Source of the DNA: Minisyncoccia bacterium
GTDB lineage: Bacteria > Patescibacteriota > Minisyncoccia > 2-02-FULL-40-12 > IGHO2-01-FULL-4-A
Assembly (NCBI GenBank): GCA_050015375.1
Contig: JBEKBN010000001.1
Span: forward strand, 34,683 to 98,682
Length of the DNA stretch: 64,000 nt
Reading direction: 5' to 3'
Position 1 is the stretch's first letter. Each line of letters opens with the position of its first letter. The translations under genes and the position numbers were made by a program. Under the pieces are notes generated by a model. That model did not search any database. It was given only the letters and a program-made list of their open reading frames with translations, and was not told the origin of the DNA. Below, one piece after another: positions 654-30,826 of the stretch.

Positions 654-1671
654 AATCGTTTTGGGCATTCTGGTTTTCATAACCGGCTTTTTGGTTATCC
701 GGGTTGGCTCCGTCCTGACAAGCAAAGTCAAGCTCGCCGACACCACCGCCAGTATTGCCGGCGCCATCAGCAATAACGGCGACTTCACGCCGGTGGACCC
801 GATGACCGTCGATTCCGATCATGATGGCCTTCCGGATCGGGAGGAAATAATTTACGGCACCGACCCTAATAATCCCGACACCGACGGTGACGGTTTTACG
901 GATGGCGAAGAGGTAGCGGCCGGCACTGATCCATTGGATCCGAATGACAACATAGCGACTAGAAAAGCCGGCACCAGCACCGGCAGTTTATCCTTGGTCT
1001 CACCCACGGCGAATTTGACCGACCGCCTCTTGAATACGGGCCTGGCATCTTTGATAGATGATTCGGGCAATCTGAATCCTGACGCCATGACCGACCAAAA
1101 ATACGCCGATATTTTAAATACTATAAACGCCGCCGCCGCCGCCGGACTCGCGCCGACGACGATCGCTGATAGCGACATCAAGATCATTAGCGACAACAGC
1201 CCGGCGGCCATTACCAAATACATCAACACCGTTTCTTCAATAATTGAAGAAGGAATATTTGGTCCCACCGGCGCGATGATAACCGGTACGTCCGACGACA
1301 TCATCGGTTTATCCCAAAATGAAAATTATTATCAAAATAAATATAACGCCTTGAAAGTCATTGAGGTGCCGTCGTCGTGGAAGGAAATAGACAAAACGAC
1401 TTTGACCAGTTTGCAATCTTTGGCCAATGCTACCAAAGCTCTCACACCCGATGCAATAAATTCCGACCCGGTCATGGCTAGTTATGCTTTGAATCAACTC
1501 CAGAACGCATTTTTAACCCTAACTGACTTGATCAGCCAAGCATGCAGTTTGGCCCAATCCCAGAATGTCCCGATCAAGGATTCAATTTTTGATATGCTGA
1601 AAGCCGTCAATGTATCGGCTTCTCCGACACCTCAGATTTCTGCAACACCTCAAGTTTCTCCGATACCATAA
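637..1671 (+). CDS. membrane-anchored secreted protein with thrombospondin-type-3-like Ca-binding repeats
   Basis: N-terminal TM helix (LGILVFITGFLVI), then DSDHDGLPDREE / DPNNPDTDGDGFTDGEE / DPLDPND aspartate-rich repeats. Start overlaps the lnt stop. Confidence 0.5.
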   Translation: MSNRLKIVLGILVFITGFLVIRVGSVLTSKVKLADTTASIAGAISNNGDFTPVDPMTVDSDHDGLPDREEIIYGTDPNNPDTDGDGFTDGEEVAAGTDPLDPNDNIATRKAGTSTGSLSLVSPTANLTDRLLNTGLASLIDDSGNLNPDAMTDQKYADILNTINAAAAAGLAPTTIADSDIKIISDNSPAAITKYINTVSSIIEEGIFGPTGAMITGTSDDIIGLSQNENYYQNKYNALKVIEVPSSWKEIDKTTLTSLQSLANATKALTPDAINSDPVMASYALNQLQNAFLTLTDLISQACSLAQSQNVPIKDSIFDMLKAVNVSASPTPQISATPQVSPIP

Positions 1672-1677
1672 TAAGCT

Positions 1678-3060
1678 ATGGCCAAATTTAAAAAAATCTT
1701 CGCTTCAGTTGTCATCGCCTTTTTGATTTTTGATCTCCTAGTAATTTCATCGAAAAATGCCCAGGCTGCTGCTTTTATCGGTGACCCTTTGGAATTCACC
1801 AAACAATACATAATTTACCCTCTCGTCAGAGCAATTGCCAATTCGTTTGAAAGTATTCTTATCAACAAACTCAATCAACAGATAATCGGCGCTAACGGCG
1901 CCGTGCCATCGTTCATCACCAACTGGCGCAACCATCTTTTGGATTCCGAGGCCCGAGGCAATGATGTTTTCCGCTCGGTTCTGGCTGATGCAAATATCTG
2001 CGGTTTTATGTCGAGTAACATTAAGACGGCTTTCGGCGCCGATCTGTTCGCCGGTTCGATCGCCGGCGCGACCGTGAAGGACGCCAGCGGCAAAGTCGTC
2101 TACACCAACGAGACCAATGTGCCGGGCATGGCCTCTTTCCAGGAATCGGCGAAGTGTACCCTGCCGGCAAATTTTGATGTCAATGCCTTCAATCAGGATT
2201 TTTCTAAAGGCGGCTGGGCGGCCTGGGATCAAATGCTTGAGCCCCAGAACAATCTTTTCGGCATCTACACAATGGCTTTGGGTGAACAGCAAGCTCAGAT
2301 CGCCACCGAGCAAACCTCGACTATGAACTCGGCTGTCGCCGGCAATGGATTTTTGTCAAGCAAGTTGGGCAATGCCGTGGGTTCGGCTCTAGGAGTAAGC
2401 GGATCAGCTACCGGGCCGACCGGTTGCGTTGACACGGCCGGAACCCTGTCCGGTGGGGTCCAGGGCCCTACCATGACTACCCGTTGCACCTTCATGGGTA
2501 AGGATGTTACGCCAGGTTTTCTTAAAGCTGGCGGCGCCGGTTCGGCGATAGGCACAAAAATCGGCCAACCTCAAGCAGCTAAAGAAATTACGGATGTTGT
2601 GTTGAGTCTTTTTAATGACGTGCTTAAGGTGGTCGCGGACGCGACCGGCTCGGTTGGCAACTATCTGGGTCAAGCATCATACGACGCGACTGTCGGCTCC
2701 TTACCTGGCTTTAGCGAAACCCAGAAACAAGCCGGCGCCAGCGACACCCAGATCAATCAGGTCCAGCAACAGGTCAATCAAACCTCGGCTCAACTCGGTC
2801 AAAAAGAAAGCGCTACGGCAAGCGCCGCCAGTGGCACTTGCAGTTCGACTTGCATGGCTACCAAAGCGACGACCTGCACAACTAACAACCAGGTCACCAC
2901 TTGCAACCCAGTGACCGATCCCGTAACCGGCCAGACAACACAAAGTTGCCAGACCAGCACCGACCCAACCGGCTACAACGCCTGCATGGCCCAAGCCCAG
3001 ACCGATTGTAACGCTCAATGCCCGGTCGTGCCTACAGTAAGTATTCCGCCTCCGCCCTAA
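1678..3060 (+). CDS. secreted Gly-rich protein with Thr/Cys-rich C-terminal tail, hypothetical
   Basis: Signal peptide MAKFKKIFASVVIAFLIFDLLVISSKNAQA. C-terminus TCSSTCMATKATTCTTNNQVTTCNPV...CNAQCP. First gene of the T4SS-like block. Confidence 0.45.
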   Translation: MAKFKKIFASVVIAFLIFDLLVISSKNAQAAAFIGDPLEFTKQYIIYPLVRAIANSFESILINKLNQQIIGANGAVPSFITNWRNHLLDSEARGNDVFRSVLADANICGFMSSNIKTAFGADLFAGSIAGATVKDASGKVVYTNETNVPGMASFQESAKCTLPANFDVNAFNQDFSKGGWAAWDQMLEPQNNLFGIYTMALGEQQAQIATEQTSTMNSAVAGNGFLSSKLGNAVGSALGVSGSATGPTGCVDTAGTLSGGVQGPTMTTRCTFMGKDVTPGFLKAGGAGSAIGTKIGQPQAAKEITDVVLSLFNDVLKVVADATGSVGNYLGQASYDATVGSLPGFSETQKQAGASDTQINQVQQQVNQTSAQLGQKESATASAASGTCSSTCMATKATTCTTNNQVTTCNPVTDPVTGQTTQSCQTSTDPTGYNACMAQAQTDCNAQCPVVPTVSIPPPP

Positions 3061-3067
3061 GACCTAA

Positions 3068-5230
3068 ATGCGACTATTTAAAATAAGCAAAAAAATCATT
3101 CCGATAATAGTCATCGTCGCGATGCTGATTTTGATTTTGCCCCAGCATCAAGCGAAGGCGGATCTTCCGGGCCTTGGTAGCATGGCAATAGGCGGCGTCG
3201 CGAGTTGGATAATGAACACAATCATCACAGGAGTGGGTACAGCGATTAGTTGGTCAGCTGGGCTTTTGGATTCTTTCATCGGCATGACTTCTTTTAACCC
3301 CCCATCCCAAGTTCAGGACAGTTGGAAAATGATTCGTGATTTCGTAAACATGTTTTTTATCCTGGTTCTGGTTATTATGGCATTCGGCACGATATTCGAT
3401 CTCCAAAAATATAACTATAAAACATTACTTTCGAGTTTTCTAATTGCTGCGATTTTTGTGAATTTTAGCTATGCAATCGGCATTTATATCTGGAACATCT
3501 CCAATGGCCTCGCTCATATTTTTTTGAGCACGATTCAGGGCGCAAGTAACCAAAGCGTGAGCGCAATCCTTGGCAACGGGCTAAGCTTGGGTCATTTTGT
3601 GACTTGGAACGGAGGCAATGCCGTAAATATCAGCGGCATTTCCAGCACGACAAGCATCGGGGCAGGTTCACCAATAATTACTTCCGTCTTCTTTATAGTA
3701 TTTTTAGTGATGGCTTTGATGGCAATCTTGTCGGCCGCTATTTTTGCTTTCATCAGAATCCCGTTCATCTGGTTCTTTCTTATCATTTCTCCAATCGCAT
3801 GGTTAAGTTATGCCCTGCCTAGCATGCGAAGCGCCGGTTGGAGCAAATGGTGGAAAAATTTTTTAGGCTGGTGTTTCTTTTTGCCGATTTATCTTTTTTT
3901 CCTGATGTTCGCCGTGATTTTTATTCATGTCAAGGACTCGAAAATTACCGAGATCGCAAAACAGCAGGCATTTTTGGCAGGCCCGCAGGCGCAATATGGC
4001 AACACTATGGCTGGGTTATTCCAGGCCATCGGTTTGAACGATATCTTCTTTTTTGTCGTAACGATTATTATCATGGTTTACGGATTGGCCATGGCGAAAA
4101 CGGTTGCCTTCGCGGGTGGTAGCCGAGCCATGAAAATTTTCGGTGGCATTGAGAACGGGGTCAAGCGCTACTTCCCGGGTTCGAGAACGGCACGAGGTAT
4201 ATACGCAGGTGCAAAGCAGGGATATGAGGCCAGAGTCGAAAGAGCCAAGACCGAGGGCGTTGGTTTTGGACGATTTAGAATTGGCGGTGAGAGTAAACTA
4301 AAAGGGACAATTGCCGAAATGGGCGGTTTTGGTGAAAGAGGGGCCAGAGAAAAACAGTTCGCCGCCGAAGTTAAAAAATTAAAAGAATCGATGGCAAATA
4401 TCGGCGATATCGAGCGTATCAGAAAAATGTCTCAGTCTGGCTCGGCTTACCAACAGCTTGCTGCAGCCGAAATACTCAGAGAAAGAAATGCGATGTCCGG
4501 CCAGGAGATGATTGATACGTACAAAAAATACCGAGAGAATAAGGCGTATGTTTCCGCGACTAGATTTATCAGTAGTGTAGACTTCAAGGATCTATCTGGG
4601 GAAGAAAGACGTGCCATCAACGCGAATCTGAATGTTACAGATCTTGAAGCTAAAAGAAAAATCGCCAAAGTCATGGCAGAAAAGGGCGACTTTAAGGCAC
4701 CACTGGGAACACCGGATAATATGAAAGTTCAAGCCGTCGCCGACCAGATTACTAAGGCCGCCGAATTGTTTGCTACGGCTGGGGACAGATTGGATATCTT
4801 GCAGAAAGCGAAGAAAGGTAACATCGAAGCAGCTGCTATAGCCACTGTTAATCTTAAGATACAGGATAAGGATGGGAATATTATTAAAACCACCGATGAC
4901 GCTATCACTAAGCTATTCATTGATTCTATCAGAAAAGCAAAGGTTGACGATATGATCGATCTTTCAAAGGAAACCCTCGCGAATGAGGAAGTAAAAAAGA
5001 TAATTCTGGATAAATTAGACAGAGATTTTCGGACAAAAAATGATTTTATGAATCGAGCAACTGATAAACAAAAAATGGCATTGGGTCTTCCTACTGGCCA
5101 ACAACCACCGCAGACATTCAATGTGGGCGAGGGAATTAGTAGCAATGTGGAACGAGACGGAAATCCGAAAGTAATTCTCGCTTCCGAAAATAATGTCATC
5201 GACCTCCGCAATAAATCTGGCGATGATTAA
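3068..5230 (+). CDS. polytopic membrane protein, VirB6/TrbL-like (putative T4SS channel component)
   Basis: 720 aa. N-terminal signal/TM, then about 6-7 hydrophobic helices in the first 300 aa, and a long charged C-terminal domain. Position upstream of VirB3-like/VirB4 genes. Confidence 0.4.
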   Translation: MRLFKISKKIIPIIVIVAMLILILPQHQAKADLPGLGSMAIGGVASWIMNTIITGVGTAISWSAGLLDSFIGMTSFNPPSQVQDSWKMIRDFVNMFFILVLVIMAFGTIFDLQKYNYKTLLSSFLIAAIFVNFSYAIGIYIWNISNGLAHIFLSTIQGASNQSVSAILGNGLSLGHFVTWNGGNAVNISGISSTTSIGAGSPIITSVFFIVFLVMALMAILSAAIFAFIRIPFIWFFLIISPIAWLSYALPSMRSAGWSKWWKNFLGWCFFLPIYLFFLMFAVIFIHVKDSKITEIAKQQAFLAGPQAQYGNTMAGLFQAIGLNDIFFFVVTIIIMVYGLAMAKTVAFAGGSRAMKIFGGIENGVKRYFPGSRTARGIYAGAKQGYEARVERAKTEGVGFGRFRIGGESKLKGTIAEMGGFGERGAREKQFAAEVKKLKESMANIGDIERIRKMSQSGSAYQQLAAAEILRERNAMSGQEMIDTYKKYRENKAYVSATRFISSVDFKDLSGEERRAINANLNVTDLEAKRKIAKVMAEKGDFKAPLGTPDNMKVQAVADQITKAAELFATAGDRLDILQKAKKGNIEAAAIATVNLKIQDKDGNIIKTTDDAITKLFIDSIRKAKVDDMIDLSKETLANEEVKKIILDKLDRDFRTKNDFMNRATDKQKMALGLPTGQQPPQTFNVGEGISSNVERDGNPKVILASENNVIDLRNKSGDD

Positions 5231-5234
5231 AATT

Positions 5235-5260
5235 AAAAAAGCGCGATTTGTCGCGCTTGT
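5235..5260. terminator. bidirectional hairpin terminator between convergent genes
   Basis: AAGCGCGA-TTTG-TCGCGCTT perfect 8-bp stem. A-tract on its left gives a U-tract for the minus-strand gene ending at 5289. Confidence 0.5.
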
Positions 5261-5288
5261 CAGTTTGTTCGCTTCTTCTTGAGCGGGT

Positions 5289-5912
5289 TTAAGCTCTCCT
5301 GTAGTTTAGCACATAACGAACAAGGTCTTTTATATAAGTATCTGAAACTTCACATCCTTTATATTCCTGAAATAGCACTCCGCCATACCACCCATTTTCT
5401 GGTCGCCTCCCCCTGAAACCACGCTTATGGACGCAAACCTCAAAATAAAAAGACCTTTGATCGGAATTATAGATAATATGGACAAGCCTATCCCTAAAAC
5501 GAGTGCTCGGGTCAAAGAGTAGATAACACTCTGAAACAGTCCATTGTTTATCCAGATTTTTTCCGTATACCTTGCTCTCGGTTCGAATTTCCATTCCGGA
5601 GTTAAGTTCTGATTCGATTAACTTCTTGACCCTGAGAGCGACCGGTTTAACTATTTGGAGATTGGGCTCATTTTCATATTTTTCTTGTAGTTTTTCAGAT
5701 TCCCTATGCTCTGTCTCTCTGTCTCGCCGCCTTTTTTCTTCTTCCCGTAGCTGTTCTTCGCGCTGTTCTTGTTTTTCTTGTAACAAATAAGCCCTATAGC
5801 CCTCCTGTTGACCCTCCCACTCTTCTCGGCTTTGGAATAAGCCTGGCGACGAACCGGGCTGATGTCCTCTAAGACCCCTTTCGTATCCATCGGTTTTCTT
5901 AGACATATTCAC
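5289..5912 (-). CDS. hypothetical protein with charged coiled-coil N-terminus
   Basis: 207-aa ORF on the opposite strand inside the T4SS-like block; E/R/K/Q-rich N-terminal half. No recognisable motif. Confidence 0.4.
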   Translation of the reverse strand: MNMSKKTDGYERGLRGHQPGSSPGLFQSREEWEGQQEGYRAYLLQEKQEQREEQLREEEKRRRDRETEHRESEKLQEKYENEPNLQIVKPVALRVKKLIESELNSGMEIRTESKVYGKNLDKQWTVSECYLLFDPSTRFRDRLVHIIYNSDQRSFYFEVCVHKRGFRGRRPENGWYGGVLFQEYKGCEVSDTYIKDLVRYVLNYRRA

Positions 5913-5992
5913 ACTCCTTTTGGTTGTTTTCTGCTATAATTGTATAGGTGCTGACTGTCTAGGACACTAACAGGGCCTGATAATTAAGTCAA

Positions 5993-6316
5993 ATGCGTTT
6001 TCAAGTTCCACAATTCATCGAGACCGAGACCAAGCTCGTCGGGCCGCTCACGCTCAGGCAGTTTATATACATCGGCGCCGGGGCGCTGATAATTTTCCTT
6101 CTCCGGTATGTTCTTACCAGCGTTTTTTTGTGGATCATGGCGGACATTCCCATCGGCGCTCTGGCCGCCGGTCTGGCGTTCTACAAAATTGACAGCGTGC
6201 CGTTGCCCCGCTATCTGGTGTCGGCGACAAGTTTTCTTTTCGGCGGCAAAAAATATATTTATAAAAAAGAACCGCCGGATAATTCCGATGTAAATCAACT
6301 CTTGAATAAAAATTAA
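5993..6316 (+). CDS. small 2-TM membrane protein (VirB3/PrgI-like position)
   Basis: 107 aa with two hydrophobic helices (GAGALIIFLLRYVLTSVFLWI, ADIPIGALAAGLAFY). Sits immediately upstream of VirB4-family ORFs, as VirB3/PrgI does in conjugation loci. Confidence 0.35.
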   Translation: MRFQVPQFIETETKLVGPLTLRQFIYIGAGALIIFLLRYVLTSVFLWIMADIPIGALAAGLAFYKIDSVPLPRYLVSATSFLFGGKKYIYKKEPPDNSDVNQLLNKN

Positions 6317-6983: not shown

Positions 6984-8753
6984 ATGCCATTTTTCGGAAA
7001 GAAAAAAGAAAAAGTTCAGGAAGATACCGCCAAGAAAACCTTCGACGATATTTTGGCGCCTTCGGCGATAAATCTTTCGGCAAATTACATCCAGATCGGC
7101 GACAAATTCGCTCGGACCTTGTTTGTCATCACTTATCCGAGATACCTCAATACCAATTGGTTCTCGCCGATAATCAACATGGACCAGCCGATGGATATTT
7201 CTATTTTCATTCACCCCTTGGACACCGGCGTTATTTTGAAAAAATTACGTGACAAGCTTGGACGCCTTGAAGCCGAGGTCATGGAAGACGAGTCGGCCGG
7301 CAAGGTCCGCGATCCGGTCAAGGAAACGGCGGTCAACGACATTGAGGAGCTTCGCGACAAACTCCAGCAGGGCACCGACAGGTTTTTCGAATTCGGTTTG
7401 TATGTCACGCTTTATGGCGACTCGGTCAAGGAACTTGACGAAGTTGAGAATAAAGTTCGGGCGATTCTGGACGCCCAATTGGTCTACACTAAGCCGGCGA
7501 CTTTCCGGATGAAAGAAGGTTTTTTCTCGACCATGCCTTTGAGCAACGACCAGTTGGATGTCCATACTTCGCTTAATACCGAACCGGTTTCTTCGCTGTT
7601 CCCGTTCGTCTCTTACGACCTGACCACCGACAAAGGGATACTTTACGGCGTCAATTCGCATAACAATTCTCTGGTGCTTTTCGACCGGTTCAGTTTGGAA
7701 AATTACAACATGGTCGTCTTCGGTAAATCCGGCGGCGGCAAATCCTACGCCGTTAAATTGGAGATAATGAGAAGTTTGATGCTTGGCGTTCAGGTGTTCG
7801 TTATTGATCCTGAGAATGAATTCAAATATCTTGCCGATACCGTCGGCGGCACTTCAATAAAAATATCCATTTCGTCAGAGGACCACATCAATCCTTTCGA
7901 CCTGCCCAAACCCCAGCCAGACGAATCGCCGGCCGATGTTTTGCGTTCACATATTTTGGACCTGATCGGGCTTTTGAAACTGATGCTTGGCACGATCACT
8001 TCCGACGAGGAAGCTATTCTTGACGAAGCCGTCATTCAGACCTATGCCATCAAAGATATCACCCAAAATTCCGATTTTTCCAGCGCCACGCCACCTCTCA
8101 TGTCCGATCTCTTGAGCGTGCTTGAAGGCATGACCGGCGCCCAGTCGCTGGCTGTCCGGCTGAAAAAATATACCGAGGGCAGTTTCGCCGGTTTTTTGAA
8201 CAACCCGACCAATGTCCGGCTTGATAATCAGTTGGTCGTTTTCGGCATCCGCGACATGGAGGAAGAGTTGCGGCCGGTGGCGATGTATCTGGTTCTAAAT
8301 TACATCTGGGCTCAAGTCCGGAGCGACATAAGAAAAAGATTGCTGGCGGTGGATGAGGCCTGGGTTTTGCTGAAATACGAGGTTGGCGGCGCTTTTCTTC
8401 TCAATATCGCCAAAAGGGCCAGGAAATATTATCTGGGCCTGACGACTATCTCCCAGGACATTCCCGATTTCATGAATTCGGCTTACGGCAAACCGATCGT
8501 CACCAACTCATCGCTCCAATTGCTTTTGCGCCAGTCGCCGGCTTCCATTGACCTTGTCCAACAAACATTCAATCTGACCGATTCCGAGAAATTTTTCCTG
8601 TTGGAATCGCGAGTCGGCCACGGGCTTTTCTTCGCCGGCCAGAATCATGTCGCTCTCCAGGTCGTTTCTTCTTACGCCGAAGACCAGGTCATTACTTCCG
8701 ACCCGCGCCAACTGGCCGACATCGAAGAGGCCAAAAAAGAACTAGAAAAGTAG
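6984..8753 (+). CDS. virB4: VirB4/TrbE/CagE-family conjugal-transfer ATPase (ATPase core)
   Basis: Walker A VVFGKSGGGKSYAV. Walker B LLAVDEAWVLL (DEAW typical of VirB4/TraC). Region before Walker A (KFARTLFVITYPRYLNTNWFSPII...DISIFIHPLD) is typical of VirB4. Confidence 0.7.
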   Translation: MPFFGKKKEKVQEDTAKKTFDDILAPSAINLSANYIQIGDKFARTLFVITYPRYLNTNWFSPIINMDQPMDISIFIHPLDTGVILKKLRDKLGRLEAEVMEDESAGKVRDPVKETAVNDIEELRDKLQQGTDRFFEFGLYVTLYGDSVKELDEVENKVRAILDAQLVYTKPATFRMKEGFFSTMPLSNDQLDVHTSLNTEPVSSLFPFVSYDLTTDKGILYGVNSHNNSLVLFDRFSLENYNMVVFGKSGGGKSYAVKLEIMRSLMLGVQVFVIDPENEFKYLADTVGGTSIKISISSEDHINPFDLPKPQPDESPADVLRSHILDLIGLLKLMLGTITSDEEAILDEAVIQTYAIKDITQNSDFSSATPPLMSDLLSVLEGMTGAQSLAVRLKKYTEGSFAGFLNNPTNVRLDNQLVVFGIRDMEEELRPVAMYLVLNYIWAQVRSDIRKRLLAVDEAWVLLKYEVGGAFLLNIAKRARKYYLGLTTISQDIPDFMNSAYGKPIVTNSSLQLLLRQSPASIDLVQQTFNLTDSEKFFLLESRVGHGLFFAGQNHVALQVVSSYAEDQVITSDPRQLADIEEAKKELEK

Positions 8754-22576: not shown

Positions 22577-23560
22577 ATGGCGGAAAAAGAACCAAAAAAG
22601 GGAGAAATAGTCATCTACAAAACCTCAAAAGGGCCGGAGTTGGAAGTTAAGTTGGAGAAGGAAACCATTTGGCTGACGCAGGCGCAGATTGCTTTACTTT
22701 TTGATTCAGAAAGAAGCGTTATCACAAAACATCTAAACAACATATTCGAAGAAGGCGAGATTGATCAGAAAAGCAATGTGCAAAAAATGCACATTGCAAA
22801 TTCTGATAAGCCCGTGGCATTTTATAGCCTCGATGTCATAATCTCCGTCGGTTATCGGGTCAATTCAAAAAGCGCAACCCAGTTCAGGATTTGGGCGACG
22901 AGAACCCTCAAACAGCATCTCATCCAGGGATATACCATCAATGAAAAAAGATTGCTGAACGCAAGGGCGAAATTCGCCGAACTCCAAAGCGCCATTTTGT
23001 TTTTAAGCGAGAAATCAAAACACGAACTTCTTGGCGGACAAGAACAGGAAATATTGAACCTGCTTTCAATCTATTCGAAGACCCTTACCCTCCTTGAGCA
23101 ATACGATACCAATAAGCTCAAAACCGTTTCCGGCAAAAAAGCCAAGTTCGTTTTAGATTACGCAAAATCAAAAAAGATAATCGAAGATGTTGGAGTCGGA
23201 TTGGCCTCAATGGGAGGCGCAGGGGATTTGTTCGGCCAAGAATATACGGGTAAATTGGAGGCCATTGTCAAAAACCTCTATCAAACATATGACGGCAAAG
23301 AACTCTATGACACCATTGAGGAAAAAGCCGCCCATCTTTTATACCTAACCATCAAAGACCATCCTTTCGCTGACGGCAATAAAAGAATCGCCTCATTTTT
23401 GTTTGTTTATTATTTGGACAAAAATAGCTATCTTTACAAAGAAACCGGCGAAAAGAAGATTAACGACAATGCTCTGGTAGCCCTAGCCCTGTTGATTGCG
23501 GTCAGCAAACCACTCGAGAAAGATGTTATGATAAAAATAATCATGAATTTGTTGGTTTAA
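22577..23560 (+). CDS. Fic/DOC-family protein with RhuM-like N-terminal domain
   Basis: Fic motif HPFADGNKRIASFLFVYYL (HPFx[DE]GNxR). N-terminal region ...WLTQAQIALLFDSERSVITKHLNNIFEEGE... typical of RhuM-type proteins. Confidence 0.75.
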   Translation: MAEKEPKKGEIVIYKTSKGPELEVKLEKETIWLTQAQIALLFDSERSVITKHLNNIFEEGEIDQKSNVQKMHIANSDKPVAFYSLDVIISVGYRVNSKSATQFRIWATRTLKQHLIQGYTINEKRLLNARAKFAELQSAILFLSEKSKHELLGGQEQEILNLLSIYSKTLTLLEQYDTNKLKTVSGKKAKFVLDYAKSKKIIEDVGVGLASMGGAGDLFGQEYTGKLEAIVKNLYQTYDGKELYDTIEEKAAHLLYLTIKDHPFADGNKRIASFLFVYYLDKNSYLYKETGEKKINDNALVALALLIAVSKPLEKDVMIKIIMNLLV

Positions 23561-23629
23561 TTTCCATTCGCCCGGAAAGAGTTTCCCCGGGCCCGTCGGA
23601 GGATTGAAAAAATCCGGGGGAGATGTAAA

Positions 23630-24058
23630 ATGAAGGGGAATCTGGCGGCTCGATCTATGGGAAACACCTACCTCTCGTATCAGCAATTAAAAAAACCATC
23701 ATGGTCTCCGCCGAGCTGGCTTTTCGGCCCGGTCTGGACGGCGCTTTATATTTTAATCGTCATTTCCTTCGGTTACACCGGCTGGCTGTTTTTCAACGGT
23801 AAAATTTCCTTCCTCATCCTTTTGCCGTTCATCCTGAATCTAATTTTCAATTTTTCTTTTACCACTATCCAATTCAAACTCAAGAATAATCTGCTGGCGG
23901 CCGCCGACATCTTGCTTGTCTTAGCCACTCTCATCTGGGCCATGGTTGCCATCTATTTTGACGTCCGCTGGATCGCCTATCTCCAAATACCATATTTTCT
24001 CTGGGTTTCCTTCGCGACCATACTGCAACTGACAGTTACATATTTAAACCGGGAATAA
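23630..24058 (+). CDS. tspO: TspO/MBR-family tryptophan-rich sensory protein
   Basis: KPSWSPPSWLFGPVWTALYILIVISFGYTGWL; 5 TM helices, Trp-rich. Confidence 0.7.
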   Translation: MKGNLAARSMGNTYLSYQQLKKPSWSPPSWLFGPVWTALYILIVISFGYTGWLFFNGKISFLILLPFILNLIFNFSFTTIQFKLKNNLLAAADILLVLATLIWAMVAIYFDVRWIAYLQIPYFLWVSFATILQLTVTYLNRE

Positions 24059-24251
24059 ACACTTCGGACAACGAAAGATATTATTCTGAATGGCCCCGAC
24101 CCGCCGGAACCGTTGACCCTCACACCAAATTTTGGTGTGCGGGTTGATTTTTTGAGCAAAAAGTGGAATAGTTTGTGTTTGAACCGAGAAAAGAGTAGAA
24201 TGGAAGCCGGGTATTTAAATCGTAATATTAATTTTTTAAATCAAATTTCAC

Positions 24252-24800
24252 ATGAATATCAAAGATGTAAAAACAGCAATAAAGGTTGGTGATTTTGTAT
24301 TGAGGAAAAATCATAGAAATAAAATAGATATCAAATATTTATCTAGTTTAAGCAGTGACATACTTACTGATAATTCGGCCAGGGTTTATTTAATAATTCA
24401 AGACGAGATTATTAAGAAAATCGGAGGCTCTGCTTCAAAAGGGGGAATTAAGGCAACAATGGCATTCTATGTTTCAGCCATGGAAGGAAGTCCGGGCGTC
24501 CCCAGGTTTGTTCTTCACCTCCTTATTGAAAGAGCTCTAATTGGCAAATCAAAAATGGAATTATACATGATAACTTCTCCTAAAACACTTGCCAGGGTCA
24601 GTGGCTTATTCGGCTATAAGAAAGTAAAAATTGCAAGTTTTAAGGAGATGGAGGATTTATGCAAATCCGATTATTTTTCGATAGAAAAGAAATATCCCGA
24701 TTGGAATTTCCAAGAAAATCACCAACCGTATCCTCCTGACTTGGCAAAAGAGCATAATTTATACCACCAAAGACGGCTCAAAAATAAACTTAAATTTTAG
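24252..24800 (+). CDS. hypothetical protein (AT-rich gene, convergent with lexA-dam fusion)
   Basis: 182-aa ORF at very low GC; no motif recognised. Confidence 0.35.
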   Translation: MNIKDVKTAIKVGDFVLRKNHRNKIDIKYLSSLSSDILTDNSARVYLIIQDEIIKKIGGSASKGGIKATMAFYVSAMEGSPGVPRFVLHLLIERALIGKSKMELYMITSPKTLARVSGLFGYKKVKIASFKEMEDLCKSDYFSIEKKYPDWNFQENHQPYPPDLAKEHNLYHQRRLKNKLKF

Positions 24801-26328
24801 GTGGACAGAAAATAATTATCTCGTGAGACTCTTTTATGTGATTCCCATTACCATTCCTTCGATTCAATCCTATTCTGGTTTCCCCTTGGCCCATAGTGTA
24901 TTGCCATGAAGGGAAAAGTTGCTGAAATTCCTTGTAATGTTCTTTTATCGTCGGGCAGTTATTATATGAGAGGATGAATCCTCCTTTATGATTTTTTAAC
25001 AAATCTCGCAAATCCTCATGAGGGAATCCCTTATGATGAACAGGTATATTTCTCATCGGATAGATCCCTTTAAACATTTTTGAATCTTTACCTATGTAAT
25101 AAGGGGGATCGCAATACAAAAAATCGTCGGGGTGATCTCTAATGACATCCCTAAAATCCGCACACTCAACTTTAAGATTATTGGGATCAAAATCTCGGAT
25201 ATTTTCAATTGTCCTCTTATATTTTTTGTCATTCAAATAAATGTCAGATGACCAGCCCATAAACCCTGGGCCATATGATAAATTGAAGTTGTAAACATAA
25301 TAGACAGCCAAAGTTAGCGGATCTAGTTTAACTTTCTTTTTCCACACATCATTCAATATTAATCTAATTCTTTCAAATGTTTCCTTGTTTGGTTTCAACT
25401 CTTTCAATTTTTTATAAAGAAGTTTTGGTTTATTAATCTGAAACCCCCAGTAATTACAGAGAATATCAAAAATATCATAACCAATAACTTCCAGGCCGAG
25501 TTCTTTACTCATGGCTATTTCGATTGAACCACCGCCGAAAAACGGTGATACAACCCTTTTTATATTCTCTGGCAGTAACTCAACTATATGACCCACGGCT
25601 AAACTTTTTCCACCCGCATATCTTATGGGGGAAAGAGCAACTCTTTTGTATTTGTTCTGACTGTCCGGATTAGAACTTCTGATACGGTCTAAGAAAGTTT
25701 TTTTTCTGAGCGCTAATGTATTGTTCTTATTGCCATTTTCCAAATTTCTTATAATTTTGATTACGATACCCCGGATCTCTAATTCTTTACGATAGATCGG
25801 CAATATTTCCTGATTTGCCGGTTGTAATCTAAAGCGTCCACTTTCTCGATAGATTTTTTTTAGGGTCGCCTTATCGTCATCAATAATTGCTACTACAGTT
25901 TGACCATCATCGGCGGTTTTTTGCTCACGAATTACCACGGTATCCCCGTCAAATATCCCATCGTTAATCATGCTATTGCCCGACACTCTTAATGCATAGT
26001 GCCTGCCAGCAATTGGAATTTCAGTCTGGGGAATAAAGATATTTTCTCCGTGCATCTCAAGCGCTTCAATCGGTTGACCAGCGGCAATTGTCCCGAGGAG
26101 GGGGATACGGACCAGTTTAGTCGAGGTTTTGACAATTTGAATTCCTCGCGCGCGGCCGTTAGCTTTTTCCAGATATCCCTTGTCCTGCAGGATCATCAGA
26201 TGTTCGTGTGCCGTTGACGGCGAAATCCTAAGTCGGCGGGCAATTTCACGTTCGGTCGGAGCGATGCCTTTTTTTGCGATGACTTTATCCACAAGATCTT
26301 TCACTTGTTTCTGTCTTGGTGTGAGCAT
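24790..26328 (-). CDS. LexA-like repressor (HTH + S24 peptidase) fused to Dam-type N6-adenine DNA methyltransferase
   Basis: N-terminus MLTPRQKQVKDLVDKVIAKKGIAPTEREIARRLRISPSTAHEHL (LexA HTH). ...VSGNSMINDGIFDGDTVVI...TLKKIY (S24 Ser/Lys dyad). Linker, then SPIRYAGGKSLAVGHIVELLP...SPFFGGGS (motif I) and LYCDPPYYIGK (DPPY motif IV) of D12-class Dam MTases. One uninterrupted 512-517-aa ORF. Confidence 0.65.
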   Translation of the reverse strand: MLTPRQKQVKDLVDKVIAKKGIAPTEREIARRLRISPSTAHEHLMILQDKGYLEKANGRARGIQIVKTSTKLVRIPLLGTIAAGQPIEALEMHGENIFIPQTEIPIAGRHYALRVSGNSMINDGIFDGDTVVIREQKTADDGQTVVAIIDDDKATLKKIYRESGRFRLQPANQEILPIYRKELEIRGIVIKIIRNLENGNKNNTLALRKKTFLDRIRSSNPDSQNKYKRVALSPIRYAGGKSLAVGHIVELLPENIKRVVSPFFGGGSIEIAMSKELGLEVIGYDIFDILCNYWGFQINKPKLLYKKLKELKPNKETFERIRLILNDVWKKKVKLDPLTLAVYYVYNFNLSYGPGFMGWSSDIYLNDKKYKRTIENIRDFDPNNLKVECADFRDVIRDHPDDFLYCDPPYYIGKDSKMFKGIYPMRNIPVHHKGFPHEDLRDLLKNHKGGFILSYNNCPTIKEHYKEFQQLFPSWQYTMGQGETRIGLNRRNGNGNHIKESHEIIIFCPPKI

Positions 26329-26343
26329 ATTATAATTATACAA

Positions 26344-26395
26344 TATATACCCGAGCAGAACCCGAGCAGTTATCCACAGTCAATTATTGAATCAA
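26344..26395 (-). promoter_or_regulatory. putative leaderless promoter/operator of the lexA-dam gene
   Basis: Minus strand: TGTGGATAA (perfect DnaA-box 9-mer), then CTGCTCGGGTT-CTGCTCGGGT tandem direct repeat, then TATAAT ending 5 nt before the ATG. No Shine-Dalgarno sequence. Confidence 0.4.
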
Positions 26396-26502
26396 ATTAT
26401 GAAGAGAGTATTATTGTATGTTAAATTATTAATTAAAATAACTATCGTACGAAAAGGGCTTCAAACAAAACCCTTTCAGTAGGGTAGTGAAAATTAATCT
26501 CA

Positions 26503-27015
26503 ATGTACAAAAATATTCATAATTTCGTTCCATTTCAACATGACAATCAAGATTTTAAAAACAAACTAATAGGTTTTGCACGCAACCAAGATAAGATAAA
26601 AATTGAAGGTGTTTTTACGGCAACTCTAATCTATACAAACCTCGTTGATTATTTAGCTACGAACCTGTTCGATAATCTAAATAAAATGTTATCAATTTTT
26701 ACATTTAAAAAATTTGGTGGCGTTTTTCATCTAGATACATCCCAAAAAAGGACCCATTTATCAGTCGGAGAGTTACAGAGAGAATTAAGTTATTTCGAAT
26801 TTCCAAATCGAAATGATTTTTTGGCATGTTTAGAAGAATTCAGGAGGCTCCGAAATGAAGTTATGCATAATCTCATGGGAGTTGATCCCAACGACACAAC
26901 AATGAAACTTGATAAGGGTTTAGCGAGGATTGCAGAGATTTCCGAAGATATTCTAGCGAAATATAATGTGATTTGTGCAGGGCTTATAACTATTTGGAAT
27001 AACGCCAACGCTTAA
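26503..27015 (+). CDS. hypothetical protein
   Basis: 170-aa ORF in the AT-rich island; no motif recognised. Confidence 0.35.
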   Translation: MYKNIHNFVPFQHDNQDFKNKLIGFARNQDKIKIEGVFTATLIYTNLVDYLATNLFDNLNKMLSIFTFKKFGGVFHLDTSQKRTHLSVGELQRELSYFEFPNRNDFLACLEEFRRLRNEVMHNLMGVDPNDTTMKLDKGLARIAEISEDILAKYNVICAGLITIWNNANA

Positions 27016-27053
27016 AGGAGTAATATAATTAATCAAGAAAGGAGGTAAATAAT

Positions 27054-27281
27054 ATGCATAGGCAAAATAAACAAGTAATAGAATATATTCTGCTCATTTC
27101 AATTATTATATTACCCTTTGTCGCGGGGTATATATTTAATGATTACAAAATACCAGCATTTCTCTTTTTGCTTGGTACTGCTCTGTTTCATGTTGTCAGA
27201 GAAAGGATTCAATCGAATATAAGCGGAGAGGGGGTCAGAAAAATTACAGTGGGTAGCAAAGCACCCCCTGGATCCAGCTAA
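27054..27281 (+). CDS. small 2-TM membrane protein
   Basis: Strong Shine-Dalgarno AAAGGAGGT 8 nt upstream; two hydrophobic helices. Confidence 0.4.
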   Translation: MHRQNKQVIEYILLISIIILPFVAGYIFNDYKIPAFLFLLGTALFHVVRERIQSNISGEGVRKITVGSKAPPGSS

Positions 27282-27364
27282 AGGTGATTTATGGCTTAAA
27301 ACAAAAGACTGACATGGATAGCGAAAATCGTACAGCTTGGATTGAGGGAAAAACAGTGCGATAA

Positions 27365-27850
27365 TTGATTGTCATGGAAAGCACAACAACATTTGTTCGG
27401 GATTTAATTAAGGGTCGGATTGCAGAAACGATTTTTGAAATGATGTTTCGGGAAACCGGAAAATTTACCATTCTCCGTTTTGGCTATGAATATACCCAGC
27501 CGGAACTCGCCCAGTACAAACATTATTTAAGATTACCGGAAGCCATCGAAAATATAGATAATTCCCCGGACTTTATTTTGTTATCGAATGATAAAACAAA
27601 AGTATATTTAGTTGAAGTAAAATACAGATCAAGTTTTGACTCAGACAAGATAAAAGTGATTGCCCAAAGCATTGCTTCAAGATGGCATTCCCCATACTTA
27701 TTTATCGCTACTCCAAAGGGTTTCTTTTTTGAACCATGCAATACAATCATCAAAAATAATGGAAACATCGGGCAATTATTTGATAATAAAGTGCCAAAAG
27801 AAATCCAAGAGAAATACCTAGAACTACTCAATGAATTTGAAAGAAAATAA
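27365..27850 (+). CDS. hypothetical protein with PD-(D/E)xK-like motif (module 1 large gene)
   Basis: ...SPDFILLSNDKTKVYLVEVKYRS... fits the PD...(D/E)xK nuclease signature. Central region shares HSPYLFIATPKG ~ HIYLFAPAHVAG with the 27968 gene. Confidence 0.4.
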   Translation: MIVMESTTTFVRDLIKGRIAETIFEMMFRETGKFTILRFGYEYTQPELAQYKHYLRLPEAIENIDNSPDFILLSNDKTKVYLVEVKYRSSFDSDKIKVIAQSIASRWHSPYLFIATPKGFFFEPCNTIIKNNGNIGQLFDNKVPKEIQEKYLELLNEFERK

Positions 27851-27859
27851 CGCCAACTT

Positions 27860-27958
27860 GTGATCCGGAAAATCAAAAATAAATATGTGGTTTTGTCCGA
27901 GAACGGCGAGCGGAAATTCGAGAGGTATAAATTTGAAAAAGCGATCAAACAGAAGTAA
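27860..27958 (+). CDS. tiny conserved ORF (module 1), VIRKIKNKYVVLSENGERKF-family
   Basis: 32 codons from GTG 27860. The peptide is nearly identical to the N-terminus of the 28438 ORF, while the DNA differs at synonymous positions. Confidence 0.4.
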   Translation: MIRKIKNKYVVLSENGERKFERYKFEKAIKQK

Positions 27959-27967
27959 AATTAAGGC

Positions 27968-28396
27968 GTGGGGAAAATAATAAAAATATCTGAAAAGCTG
28001 TATCAATTCAGGGATGAGACGGCCCTGATCATAGTTGCGGCCAAGCAGGAAGGCCGCGTTTTTCGCGCCGGCAACGGCGAACTCGAGCTTCTGGAAAAAT
28101 TCCGCGTCTCCACACCGCACTTTTCCGACAATGAAGGAATGTCGCAGGAGCGTGGACGTCGGGAAAATATCATTGAGGAAAACATCCATCACGAATACTT
28201 TGAGCATTTCCAAAAACTTTTGCGTTCCCTCGCGCCCCGTCTCAAGCCGACCCATATTTATCTCTTCGCTCCGGCTCATGTGGCAGGGGAGCTGGAGAAT
28301 ATCGTGAGACCGATCTTCGGCGCTCTGGCCGTCAGAACCGTCACCGGTATTTTCACCAAAGACACGCCGGTTGAATTCCTTGAACGGCTTCATTGA
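27968..28396 (+). CDS. hypothetical protein, divergent paralogue of 27365 gene (module 2 large gene)
   Basis: 142 aa; SLAPRLKPTHIYLFAPAHVAGELE aligns with SIASRWHSPYLFIATPKGFFFE of the upstream gene. Higher GC. Confidence 0.4.
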   Translation: MGKIIKISEKLYQFRDETALIIVAAKQEGRVFRAGNGELELLEKFRVSTPHFSDNEGMSQERGRRENIIEENIHHEYFEHFQKLLRSLAPRLKPTHIYLFAPAHVAGELENIVRPIFGALAVRTVTGIFTKDTPVEFLERLH

Positions 28397-28437
28397 GCCA
28401 GTGATTCATCGGGAACAAAAAATCAGAAAACTATTTC

Positions 28438-28578
28438 ATGATAAGAAAGATAAAAAACAAATACGTCGTCCTGTCGGAGAATTCGGGGCGGAAGTTCGGG
28501 AGTTACCGGACTCTAAAGGAAGCCAAAAAGCGCCTCCGCCAAGTTGAGTTCTTCAAGCACCGGAAATTCAAAAAATAG
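28438..28578 (+). CDS. tiny conserved ORF (module 2), MIRKIKNKYVVLSENSGRKF-family
   Basis: 46 codons, ATG 28438 to TAG 28576-78. Not in the supplied ORF track (<60 aa). Confidence 0.4.
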   Translation: MIRKIKNKYVVLSENSGRKFGSYRTLKEAKKRLRQVEFFKHRKFKK

Positions 28579-28686
28579 CCGCAGGGCTATTTTTTGATGA
28601 TTTGACATAATATCTTAAATCAGGTAATTTTAATCAGTTTTTATAACGCAGTTAGGACTGGGTTTTAGGCCCAAAGAAGGAGGTTT

Positions 28687-29358
28687 ATGGGGTGTGTTCC
28701 TTGGACAATAAAAGAGGTGAATTTTCTCCGCCGTCTTGTTAATAGCCAGAAATTAAGCTCCGGTAAAATTTATCGCAATTGTTATTTCGTCGGCAGGAGT
28801 CTCGCGTCGATAAACAGCCAAATGTCTTGTCTTGGCTTGAGCAGTCTGGCCACGAAAGGGCGAATGAAAAATAGCTGGCGGCTGAGCAAAGAGGAAAAGG
28901 AAAAACTCTCTGTTTTTTTAAATGGTGAAGGAAGGCACATGCCGAACAGCGATGTTGCCAAAATTCTCGAGACCAGCGTCCGGAATGTCAGAAGATATCG
29001 CCGCCGGTGGAAGTTAAAACTTAACCCCAAAGAATCCTTCTCCTCGAAAATATTCAAGCGAACGCACAAAAGGTCTATCGTGGCATTAAAGAATGGCTAC
29101 GCCGATTATCGCGAGAGACGCCCAATGAGGCGCCGGGCCGAATTGGTTGAACTATTCCGACAATTGGCCGAATCTCGTTGTAAAATTCCACACCGGAAAT
29201 GCAAGGATTGCGGCGAGTGGTGGTTTGACTCGGAAATATTTTTTTATCACGCGAGAATCATGGCAAATAACAAACTCCGCTTGTCGAATCATTGCAAGGC
29301 CTGCGGATTTCCATGGATAAACAAGAAGAGAGCCAAAGCAAAAAAAGTTGCCGCCTGA
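28687..29358 (+). CDS. basic protein with C-terminal Cys4 zinc-ribbon, hypothetical DNA/RNA-binding
   Basis: Shine-Dalgarno AAGGAGG. Arg/Lys-rich. CKDCGEWW...NHCKACG zinc ribbon. Confidence 0.4.
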   Translation: MGCVPWTIKEVNFLRRLVNSQKLSSGKIYRNCYFVGRSLASINSQMSCLGLSSLATKGRMKNSWRLSKEEKEKLSVFLNGEGRHMPNSDVAKILETSVRNVRRYRRRWKLKLNPKESFSSKIFKRTHKRSIVALKNGYADYRERRPMRRRAELVELFRQLAESRCKIPHRKCKDCGEWWFDSEIFFYHARIMANNKLRLSNHCKACGFPWINKKRAKAKKVAA

Positions 29359-29401
29359 TATTCTTGACAAAGCTGGGCTCAAAACCCGGTTTTTTAATAC
29401 G

Positions 29402-29434
29402 AAAAAACGGGATTGATTTTGGGTCAATCCCGTT
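29402..29434 (-). terminator. rho-independent terminator for the minus-strand gene ending at 29460
   Basis: AACGGGATTGA-TTTTGGG-TCAATCCCGTT 11-bp stem; on the minus strand it is followed by TTTTTTCG. Confidence 0.6.
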
Positions 29435-29459
29435 GGGGTTGAATGTCCTAGCGGTCTCT

Positions 29460-30380
29460 TTATTTTTTGAGCCGATATTTATTTGCATCGATATACAACG
29501 TAAAACCCCAGGCGTAGCGGCGCGTGCTCAAGTCGACAATAACATCCTGCATTCCCGGCTCCATTGTCAATCTGGGGCGCGAAGTGCTGGCAAAAACCAA
29601 GATACCGAATAAAGGCTCTCCGATCTTGACGCCAACATACGGCTGGGAAAAACTCATCGTGGCCAGCGGAAATGTTTTGTAGGGTTGTATTGCCGCCCAC
29701 CGGTCGTAGCCGTTTTCAATCCGCAGTTTGGTTTTGTCGTTGGTGTAACCGCCGAGAATAGCGAAATACTTTTGGATGCGAAGTTCCAATTCACCGGCCG
29801 GCCGCACGGACCAAAAGGAACTATTTTGAATAGAGTAATACACCAAGCTCATGCCAACACCGGCTTCGGGCGTTCCATATTGGTTCACCTCGCGCGAACT
29901 GCCATCGTTGCCGTTGCCAGTTTCCATTTTATCGCGAAAAACAAAATGAATGTTTAGCCCGCCGCGAATCACCAGTCGGCTGAATAGGGTATATTGAGGC
30001 ATGAGAGCAAAACCAAGACTCGCAACCTGGCGAATATTGATGGGAGAATCGGAAACGATCCTAGGCGTGCCCGGAGGCATGATCCAGCCGTCATCCGGAT
30101 GGGACGGAATCGTTCTTGCTTGCAAAGGAAAATTGGAAAATATCCCCAGCCGCTGGCCGGAAGTGAACAGCATGGGCCTCACCTCCAAGCCGAAACCAAA
30201 TGGTTTGTCGTAATCATGCTTGTCAGTTTCATCCTGGTCCGGATCCTGGGCGTCTTGTTTCGGTTTGTCCGGTTGCGCTTGCTGACCCTTACTTTCTGGC
30301 TGTCGGGTTTGGGTTGTTTGGGTTTGGGCGAAACAATACCCGGAAAACAACAGAAAAACGGCGACTATCTTCGAAATCAT
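29460..30380 (-). CDS. secreted protein, hypothetical
   Basis: Signal peptide MISKIVAVFLLFSGYCFAQ (start at internal ATG 30380). Q/D/K-rich low-complexity segment, then a beta-rich domain. Confidence 0.45.
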   Translation of the reverse strand: MISKIVAVFLLFSGYCFAQTQTTQTRQPESKGQQAQPDKPKQDAQDPDQDETDKHDYDKPFGFGLEVRPMLFTSGQRLGIFSNFPLQARTIPSHPDDGWIMPPGTPRIVSDSPINIRQVASLGFALMPQYTLFSRLVIRGGLNIHFVFRDKMETGNGNDGSSREVNQYGTPEAGVGMSLVYYSIQNSSFWSVRPAGELELRIQKYFAILGGYTNDKTKLRIENGYDRWAAIQPYKTFPLATMSFSQPYVGVKIGEPLFGILVFASTSRPRLTMEPGMQDVIVDLSTRRYAWGFTLYIDANKYRLKK

Positions 30381-30535
30381 GGTGAACCTCTCTTTCCATT
30401 CGTTCCTGATTTTCAAGGAACTCGCTAGCGCTAAAATACCGCGCAACCGGCAGATAGTCAATGCCGGTTAATTGTTCCCGTGGCCTGATGATTTTGGCAG
30501 CCGGATATGTTAAAATATATTCAGTCAACAAACTT

Positions 30536-30826
30536 ATGAAAAGAACTATCTACGTTTTCTTGGTGATGGTTTTGGGGCTGATTTTGAGTTTTATCGCTCA
30601 CGCGCTGATCGAGACGGCGCATATCAATTCTGCCATCGCCGGAGGGATCGTTTTGGTCAATCAGGGAATTTTCGGCAGTTATTGCGTCTTGCCGGTTTGG
30701 CTCCAGATTTTGTTGCCTCTCGCCGGAATCATCGGCGGATTTTTCATGGGCAAAACCTGGTGGCGAATGGTCTACATCCAAAAACGCCATTTCTGGCGCC
30801 GGAAAAATCTGAAAACCCATTTTTGA
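30536..30826 (+). CDS. small 3-TM membrane protein
   Basis: MKRTIYVFLVMVLGLILSFIAHALIE... three hydrophobic helices. Confidence 0.4.
   Translation: MKRTIYVFLVMVLGLILSFIAHALIETAHINSAIAGGIVLVNQGIFGSYCVLPVWLQILLPLAGIIGGFFMGKTWWRMVYIQKRHFWRRKNLKTHF

Follow-up and report, generated by a model that had tools for sequence, protein, structure and literature searches.

A cluster of four consecutive small open reading frames (ORFs) on the forward strand of a Minisyncoccia bacterium, at positions 27,365–28,578 of the 64,000-nt stretch of contig JBEKBN010000001.1 analyzed here (hereafter the window), is probably a mosaic that recombination has produced around a single conserved micro-protein gene and not a duplicated module. 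The cluster comprises a first large ORF of 161 aa read from a TTG (27,365–27,850; the public annotation starts at an ATG at 27,374 and gives 158 aa), a small ORF of 32 codons with a GTG start and without an entry in the public annotation (copy 1, 27,860–27,958), a gene for a 142-aa protein with a GTG start that lies between the two small ORFs (p142, 27,968–28,396), and the full-length micro-protein gene of 46 aa (copy 2, 28,438–28,578). A first-pass annotation of this DNA had located all four ORFs correctly and had read them as a tandem duplication of a two-gene module. Because the two large proteins belong to different families and folds, the locus is not a duplicated two-gene module. The annotation had described a block common to both proteins and had stated that their being unrelated would speak against the duplication; BLASTP found no similarity between them (best E = 11, with matches of 3–4 residues). 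In addition, the first large gene, which encodes a nuclease-like protein, is part of a low-GC island that is swapped for another island in a sister genome, L094.

The relatedness of the two small ORFs was confirmed by BLASTP, with 21 identities over 32 residues and an E value of 5e-12. The third-position pattern reported by the annotation was also reproduced. Across codons 2–20, five codons are identical, 12 differ synonymously, and two differ non-synonymously, and the substitution check that had been proposed, run by the Nei–Gojobori method, counted 11 synonymous and 0 non-synonymous nucleotide differences in codons 2–13. The conclusion drawn from this pattern, namely purifying selection on both peptides, holds in part. 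It is supported for the 46-codon ORF, in view of its homologs and confident structural model, but not for copy 1, which lacks the KRLRQVEFFKH helix of the family and whose tail differs in frame in L094, the synonymous divergence being limited to a patch of copy 2. The locus thus represents a cautionary case in which an identical protein with scrambled third positions, observed within one genome, mimicked selection on both copies. A young gene fragment beside a functional copy that carries a recombined diverged allele would be the better account, and only the sister genome revealed it.

The 46-codon ORF at 28,438–28,578 is a real and widely conserved micro-protein gene of an unnamed family. Alignments characterize the family as very basic proteins of 44–46 aa with a nearly invariant C-terminal KRLRQVEFFKH and a variable N-terminal half, in which the strands follow a MIxKxK..Y.V.S pattern; copy 2 carries every conserved position. 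More than 120 close homologs of 43–50 aa were identified in Patescibacteria and Acidobacteriota, and at least 426 species genomes carry the exact LRQVEFFK motif, among them genomes of Rokubacteria, Planctomycetota, Verrucomicrobiota, and further groups; the best 80 of these genomes supplied the loci for motif-based comparison. A profile search returned 3142 clusters at 50% identity. Within the 64-kb window, tblastn detected copies 1 and 2 and no further copy of the gene. The AlphaFold2 model of the 46-aa protein (pLDDT 89) contains strands at residues 2–5, 8–12, and 19–23, followed by a helix at residues 26–41 that bears the invariant motif. No match to the protein was found in Pfam, NCBIfam, PADLOC, or PDB sequences. 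The top Foldseek matches of the model were the lambda-integrase N-terminal domain and AP2 domains (TMq 0.54–0.60), which are non-significant (E > 1). The model shares with these domains and with the Tn916-integrase N-terminal domain the order of secondary-structure elements, a three-stranded sheet plus a helix, but there is no sequence similarity. On the sole basis of its charge and this non-significant resemblance, the micro-protein probably binds nucleic acid.

Because the neighbors of the small gene vary between lineages, it is a stand-alone gene. In Patescibacteria, its neighbors include a restriction–modification (R-M) system, a GIY-YIG nuclease, a phosphoribosyltransferase, and a transketolase, whereas in Acidobacteriota it lies between an ACT-domain protein (glnD-like region) on one side and a cold-shock gene on the other. 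R-M or nuclease genes stand immediately 5′ of it in three genomes (L001, L003, and L011). A general defense hotspot beside the small gene across Patescibacteria was considered and is unsupported, as 10 other loci have ordinary neighbors. Given its size (the 426 species genomes and 3142 clusters above, spanning several phyla and also phage proteins), this unnamed family constitutes a reasonable target for characterization; Pfam, NCBIfam, and the PDB have no entry for it, and its genes are lost to automatic ORF cut-offs. The domain was also observed in more than 100 viral contigs (IMG/VR; L106–L185). About half of these occurrences are ORFs of 40–56 aa, and the remainder lie inside phage proteins of ~250 aa and 500–1800 aa, some of them portal-like, where the domain is often C-terminal. 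Some proteins carry the micro-protein domain twice in tandem (P0254 and P0258).

Copy 1 is most likely a relic 5′ fragment of the micro-protein gene. It is homologous to the small gene only over about 27,860–27,928 (codons 1 to ~22–23), and its tail is unrelated sequence that reaches the p142 start. When the features of the family are applied to copy 1, the match is limited to residues 1 to ~23, and with its 32 residues the ORF does not extend to the invariant KRLRQVEFFKH motif. The duplicated segment extends over approximately 90 nt, comprising a leader of ~20 nt, seen in L094, and ~22–23 codons of the small gene. The GC content at third codon positions (GC3) of copy 1 is 0.58, which resembles that of native genes, unlike the island. 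Copy 1 is orthologous to L094 6297–6377. In the homologous part, 9 of 60 nt differ between the strains, including a compensated frameshift in codons 15–17, and in the tail 13 of ~45 nt differ, together with a 1-nt indel that shifts the frame. Compared with the synonymous substitution rate (dS) of 0.12 in the flanks, this load of substitutions and indels since the split corresponds to a roughly neutral rate or above. The duplication is little older than the split of the two strains, and selection is therefore not required to explain why the N-terminal part of copy 1 is intact. Copy 1 may nonetheless still be translated as a short upstream ORF that ends at the p142 start.

The sister genome L094 derives from the same metagenome as L092, which is identical to the window; the three assemblies of this population other than the window's own are all 100% identical to the window. 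The order fragment–p142–small gene is the same in L094 (88.8% identity over 730 nt, window 27,861–28,583); because both strains have it, the arrangement predates their split. On the tspO side of the island, window 23,400–24,169 is 93.8% identical to L094. Between these flanks, L094 carries at 773–6296 an island encoding RadC, NYN, an N6_N4 methyltransferase, and a ResIII/SWI2_SNF2 helicase, which is type III R-M-like; its fragment is accordingly preceded by the helicase and not by the nuclease. The region 3′ of the small gene differs too (window 28,584–30,507 versus L094 7010–8848), and homology resumes at a gene for a 121-aa membrane protein (window 30,508–30,826, 85.6% identity), so that the small-gene unit forms an islet between two variable stretches.

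The outlier among the four copies in the two genomes is copy 2 of the window. Copies 1 and 2 of L094, which are distinguished from each other by about 9 of 65 nt, are each similar to window copy 1, and these three have states in common that window copy 2 lacks. Counted in windows of 40 nt, mismatches with L094 number 0–6 in p142, rise to 8–20 from 28,398 to about 28,525, and fall to 2 at 28,520–28,580. This high-divergence patch of ~125 bp (28,398–28,525) covers the spacer after p142 and the first ~29 codons of copy 2, in which nearly all coding differences from L094 are synonymous. Copy 2 has a dS of 0.92 against L094, approximately eight times the 0.12 of p142 and tspO; its codons 2–13 contain eight synonymous and no non-synonymous differences, and the spacer (28,398–28,437) is likewise replaced, with indels. 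From these comparisons, we infer that the patch was replaced by a diverged allele from a more distant relative. An imported allele that had been under purifying selection elsewhere would yield an unchanged protein with altered third positions, and the fragment itself need not have been under selection.

The history of the locus could then be reconstructed as follows. Insertion of p142, as a tight single-gene insert of ~490 nt, would have duplicated the 5′ end of the small gene; the intact gene would have survived the insertion, and the displaced 5′ fragment would have stayed behind as the relic now seen as copy 1. This step would have occurred before the split from L094. The upstream island, including the nuclease gene, would have been exchanged, with its right edge at the start codon of the fragment, and homologous recombination would later have swapped the ~125-bp patch of copy 2 in the window lineage. 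Some insertions into genes, classically genomic islands in tRNA or tmRNA genes, regenerate their target and leave a partial copy of the gene end as a direct repeat across the insert, and such repeats may differ. The present locus resembles these islands in that the intact target gene is kept and a partial copy of a gene end lies beyond the inserted DNA. It differs in that the target is the 5′ end (in L094 and L011 also the 3′ end) of a protein-coding micro-gene, that the inserts are single genes of ~490–560 nt, and that no integrase or att-type recombinase was found. Similarly, exchanged variable islands, such as defense islands, offer a parallel in their conserved flanks (here tspO on the left and fragment–p142–small gene on the right), in contents that are wholly different in two co-occurring strains, in R-M-type content in both, and in a local patch of high divergence. 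However, the exchange is seen here in this clade only, while 10 other Patescibacteria have ordinary small-gene neighbors, and the transfer is deduced from sequence comparison. The locus documents, around a single tiny gene, fast replacement of islands and recurrent partial duplication in Patescibacteria, a group in which recombination is poorly understood.

Several points weigh against this mosaic. A search of 86 small-gene loci for a donor of the patch was negative, its first 60 nt being matched at 77% at best; the comparison involves one close sister genome, and the counts rest on 12–20 codons; and no recombinase gene was identified nearby. In both genomes, moreover, copy 1 still begins with a start codon and reads open as far as p142, and its first 14 codons differ by a single amino acid between window and L094; it may therefore have a role as a leader ORF or short peptide. 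Such a function is unlikely in our judgment but deserves to be spelled out: copy 1 would be a short upstream ORF or a truncated N-terminal peptide, its duplicated 5′ end would initiate translation of p142 by coupling or re-initiation, and the ORF would have been kept open for that purpose. The start codon is a GTG in the window, where copy 1 stops 9 nt short of the p142 start, and an ATG in L094, where copy 1 overlaps that start; a promoter-like site (27,933–27,961) lies inside the tail of copy 1. However, the tail is conserved in neither sequence nor frame, and, as estimated from base composition, chance would leave ~12 codons free of stops in about 1 in 3 cases. The near-neutral rate of change given above, in head and tail alike, and the lack of the family's invariant helix also argue for a relic. 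A further objection concerns the patch, as rapid synonymous change may have resulted from selection against repeat identity. In this improbable scenario, the changes in copy 2 arose in place, favored either because dissimilar direct repeats avoid recombination that deletes p142 or because they alter the 5′ mRNA. All eight differences from L094 in codons 2–13 are synonymous and fall on the window copy 2 branch, and three of them, near the start codon, are G or C to A, as this scenario would have it. Nonetheless, the non-coding spacer is replaced as well, with indels, the repeats of L094 are still ~86% identical without such recoding, and change in place needs about eight times the background dS.

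The first-pass annotation itself had proposed a duplicated toxin–antitoxin or defense module, in which each large protein works with a separate micro-protein and purifying selection acts on the two peptides alike. We regard this as very unlikely. The small ORFs do lie directly 3′ of the large ORFs, and the upstream neighborhood is defense-like, with a methyltransferase, a HEPN-like protein, and a nuclease. In type II toxin–antitoxin pairs as well, small genes share an orientation and are closely spaced; here, however, searches turned up no domain of a toxin or an antitoxin, the genes are not conserved as pairs, and a gene fragment takes the place of one partner. PADLOC gave no match for the small protein or for p142, and neither large family is linked to the small gene elsewhere: it is missing beside nuclease homologs in five contexts and beside p142 homologs in four contexts outside the clade, and its own homologs occur in housekeeping contexts, such as that between the ACT-domain protein and the cold-shock gene in Acidobacteriota. 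Together with the unrelated large proteins, the missing motif of copy 1, and the helicase in place of the nuclease in L094, this leaves a relic of an ordinary kind next to a micro-protein gene that is unnamed and of interest, and no toxin–antitoxin or defense module. A similarly remote chance attaches to copy 1 being the fragment of a foreign donor's small gene, carried in with the low-GC island. The GC shift lies close to copy 1, the right edge of the island coincides with its start codon, which is GTG rather than ATG, and the R-M or nuclease genes immediately 5′ of the small gene in L001, L003, and L011 would fit such an origin. Yet copy 1 is orthologous to and collinear with the L094 fragment despite the different island upstream, its GC3 is native-like, and the corresponding donor arrangement, a nuclease gene followed by the small gene, was looked for and is absent in five homolog contexts, including the closest (L105, 71% identity). 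At most, a few bases at the very start of copy 1 could come from a donor.

Partial duplicates of the small gene also exist elsewhere. Motif and self-searches of 90 loci identified extra fragments only in the window, L094, and L011. In L011, a 40-nt 5′ repeat (38 of 40 positions identical) and the full gene enclose an insert of ~485 nt with one DinB/DUF1706 gene, and a 3′ fragment (KRLGQVEFFKHRK) follows 27 nt after the small gene and carries mostly synonymous changes relative to it; the small-gene pieces lie at 4561–4599 (the 5′ repeat), 5086–5235, and 5263–5310. In L094, a 3′ fragment of ~58 nt (7557–7613) with two non-synonymous changes lies after an insert of ~560 nt. Like the L011 insert (~485 nt), the p142 insert (~490 nt) fits tightly around a single gene, and the two are nearly equal in size. 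It is conceivable, albeit with a rather low probability, that in some Patescibacteria the micro-protein gene serves as a docking site for single-gene cassettes of ~490–560 nt, whose entry at either end, through recombination, duplicates 40–90 nt while the gene is always regenerated. Four partial duplicates, three of them enclosing an insert, in three genomes (window/L094, L094, and L011) are compatible with such docking. As a further step, the direct repeats could let a cassette loop out and move to other genomes through the same conserved sequence, which would make the system a homology-based analogue of integrons without an integrase. Measured against the hallmarks of site-specific elements or integron-like cassettes, the window locus showed no integrase or recombinase domain among the ORFs of 24,252–29,358 and no att-like repeats; the only repeats are direct repeats of gene fragments.

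The gene between the two copies, p142, is a stand-alone protein with the predicted middle-domain fold of eRF1, Pelota, and Balon, that is, a baeRF-1-like core with an RNase H-like center and a long helix after the catalytic loop. Its Pfam match to Host_attach is weak (E = 0.016), and its 13 homologs share the motifs AAKQEGR, FSDNEG, and YLFAPxH. A Foldseek search of the PDB with the AlphaFold2 model (pLDDT 80) ranked eRF1 best (E = 6.5e-6, TMq 0.66) among 26 matches at E ≤ 1e-3, which include Pelota, Balon, and Vms1. In the loop at residues 47–58, the position of the eRF1 GGQ is occupied by an invariant FSDNEG, and there is no invariant Gln. The Gln of GGQ-type loops is required for peptidyl-hydrolase activity and not for membership in baeRF-1. 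The sequence of the loop suggests that p142 is a non-catalytic member and a ribosome-binding protein, with the ribosomal A site as a candidate place of binding. Stand-alone core-domain families of baeRF-1 are on record, and the reduced ones have been described as non-catalytic (Burroughs and Aravind 2019, PMC6514570). At ~140 aa, with the eRF1 middle-domain fold alone, no conserved catalytic Gln, and a weak Host_attach match, p142 resembles these cores, but the p142 loci examined show no adjacent hibernation factor, and its placement is at the level of the superfamily.

Between the window and L094, p142 shows a non-synonymous rate (dN) of 0.019 and a dS of 0.12, giving a dN/dS of ~0.16. An antisense ORF of 189 aa (27,824–28,393, reverse strand) overlies p142 and was called in its place by the gene caller of one public assembly (L091). 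The conserved family and the dN/dS of ~0.16 favor p142 on the forward strand and support the view that the antisense call is spurious. A conserved pairing of p142 with the small gene was also considered and rejected, since only the window and L094 have it and it is absent in L096–L101 (four contexts outside the clade). A scan of metagenomes for further close p142 loci returned three distant ones only.

The first large gene encodes a PD-(D/E)xK nuclease-like protein, as its sequence indicates. The PD...E-x-K motif noted in the first-pass annotation was borne out, the putative catalytic signature E18, D66 (PDF), E81, and K83 (VEVK) being invariant in 30 homologs. The family has more than 218 homologs across Patescibacteria. 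Profile matches are weak, with neither TnsA_N (E = 0.02) nor NERD (E = 0.09) reaching its curated cut-off and PADLOC REase_II at E = 0.009; a precomputed match to PF08722 was present on four homologs, and a PDB profile search with the nuclease found nothing. Because L094 carries different genes between the same flanks, the nuclease gene is island cargo and no partner of the small gene, which is not downstream of nuclease homologs in five contexts (L007–L010 and L105). At 47–71% identity, the family occurs in many Patescibacteria and is often near DNA-repair genes, such as those for RmuC and RuvB in L007 and UvrB and UvrA in L010. In L008, a homolog follows a Shedu-type SduA_C gene downstream of tspO. 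Members of the 158-aa family may act as nucleases in repair and not in restriction.

The island to which the nuclease gene belongs (24,170–27,859) was delimited from the GC profile and GC3, and on the right it is bounded by the copy 1 start codon. On the left, it is flanked by the conserved tspO gene (23,630–24,058, forward strand; Pfam TspO_MBR, E = 7e-27), which has 96% amino-acid identity with L094. Island GC3 ranges from 0.29 to 0.34 (0.33 in the nuclease gene), compared with 0.52–0.66 in tspO, copy 1, p142, copy 2, and the downstream genes. Domain matches identified an endonuclease-like gene (24,252–24,800) and a fusion of LexA with a Dam-class methyltransferase (24,790–26,343, reverse strand). 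These are followed by a HEPN-like protein of 170 aa with an Rx4H motif, RNEVMH (26,503–27,015; PADLOC CARF_HEPN, E = 4.5e-5), a 75-aa membrane protein (27,054–27,281), and, as the last gene, the nuclease-like gene (27,374–27,850, or from the TTG at 27,365). Repeat analysis revealed no flanking repeats beyond chance and no inverted or att-like repeats, and domain searches found no recombinase domain among the ORFs of 24,252–29,358. At the other end of the locus, a hairpin with a 13-bp stem and A and T runs on its sides (28,568–28,597, forward strand) overlaps the stop codon of copy 2. It is probably a terminator, with a folding energy of −17.3 kcal/mol (z = −4.9; none of 200 shuffles equally stable), although it was not among the results of a consensus terminator scan. 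Rfam gave no credible match in 27,000–29,000.

The LexA fusion of the island joins a complete LexA (helix-turn-helix and S24 peptidase; TIGR00498, 183 bits) to a D12/Dam-class methyltransferase in one ORF, along which GC3 declines from 0.42 in the LexA part to 0.34 in the methyltransferase part. In L011, a single ORF (1068–2519, reverse strand) joins LexA to an N6_N4-class methyltransferase. That LexA is fused to two different methyltransferase classes in two genomes suggests that SOS-linked R-M arrangements of this type recur.

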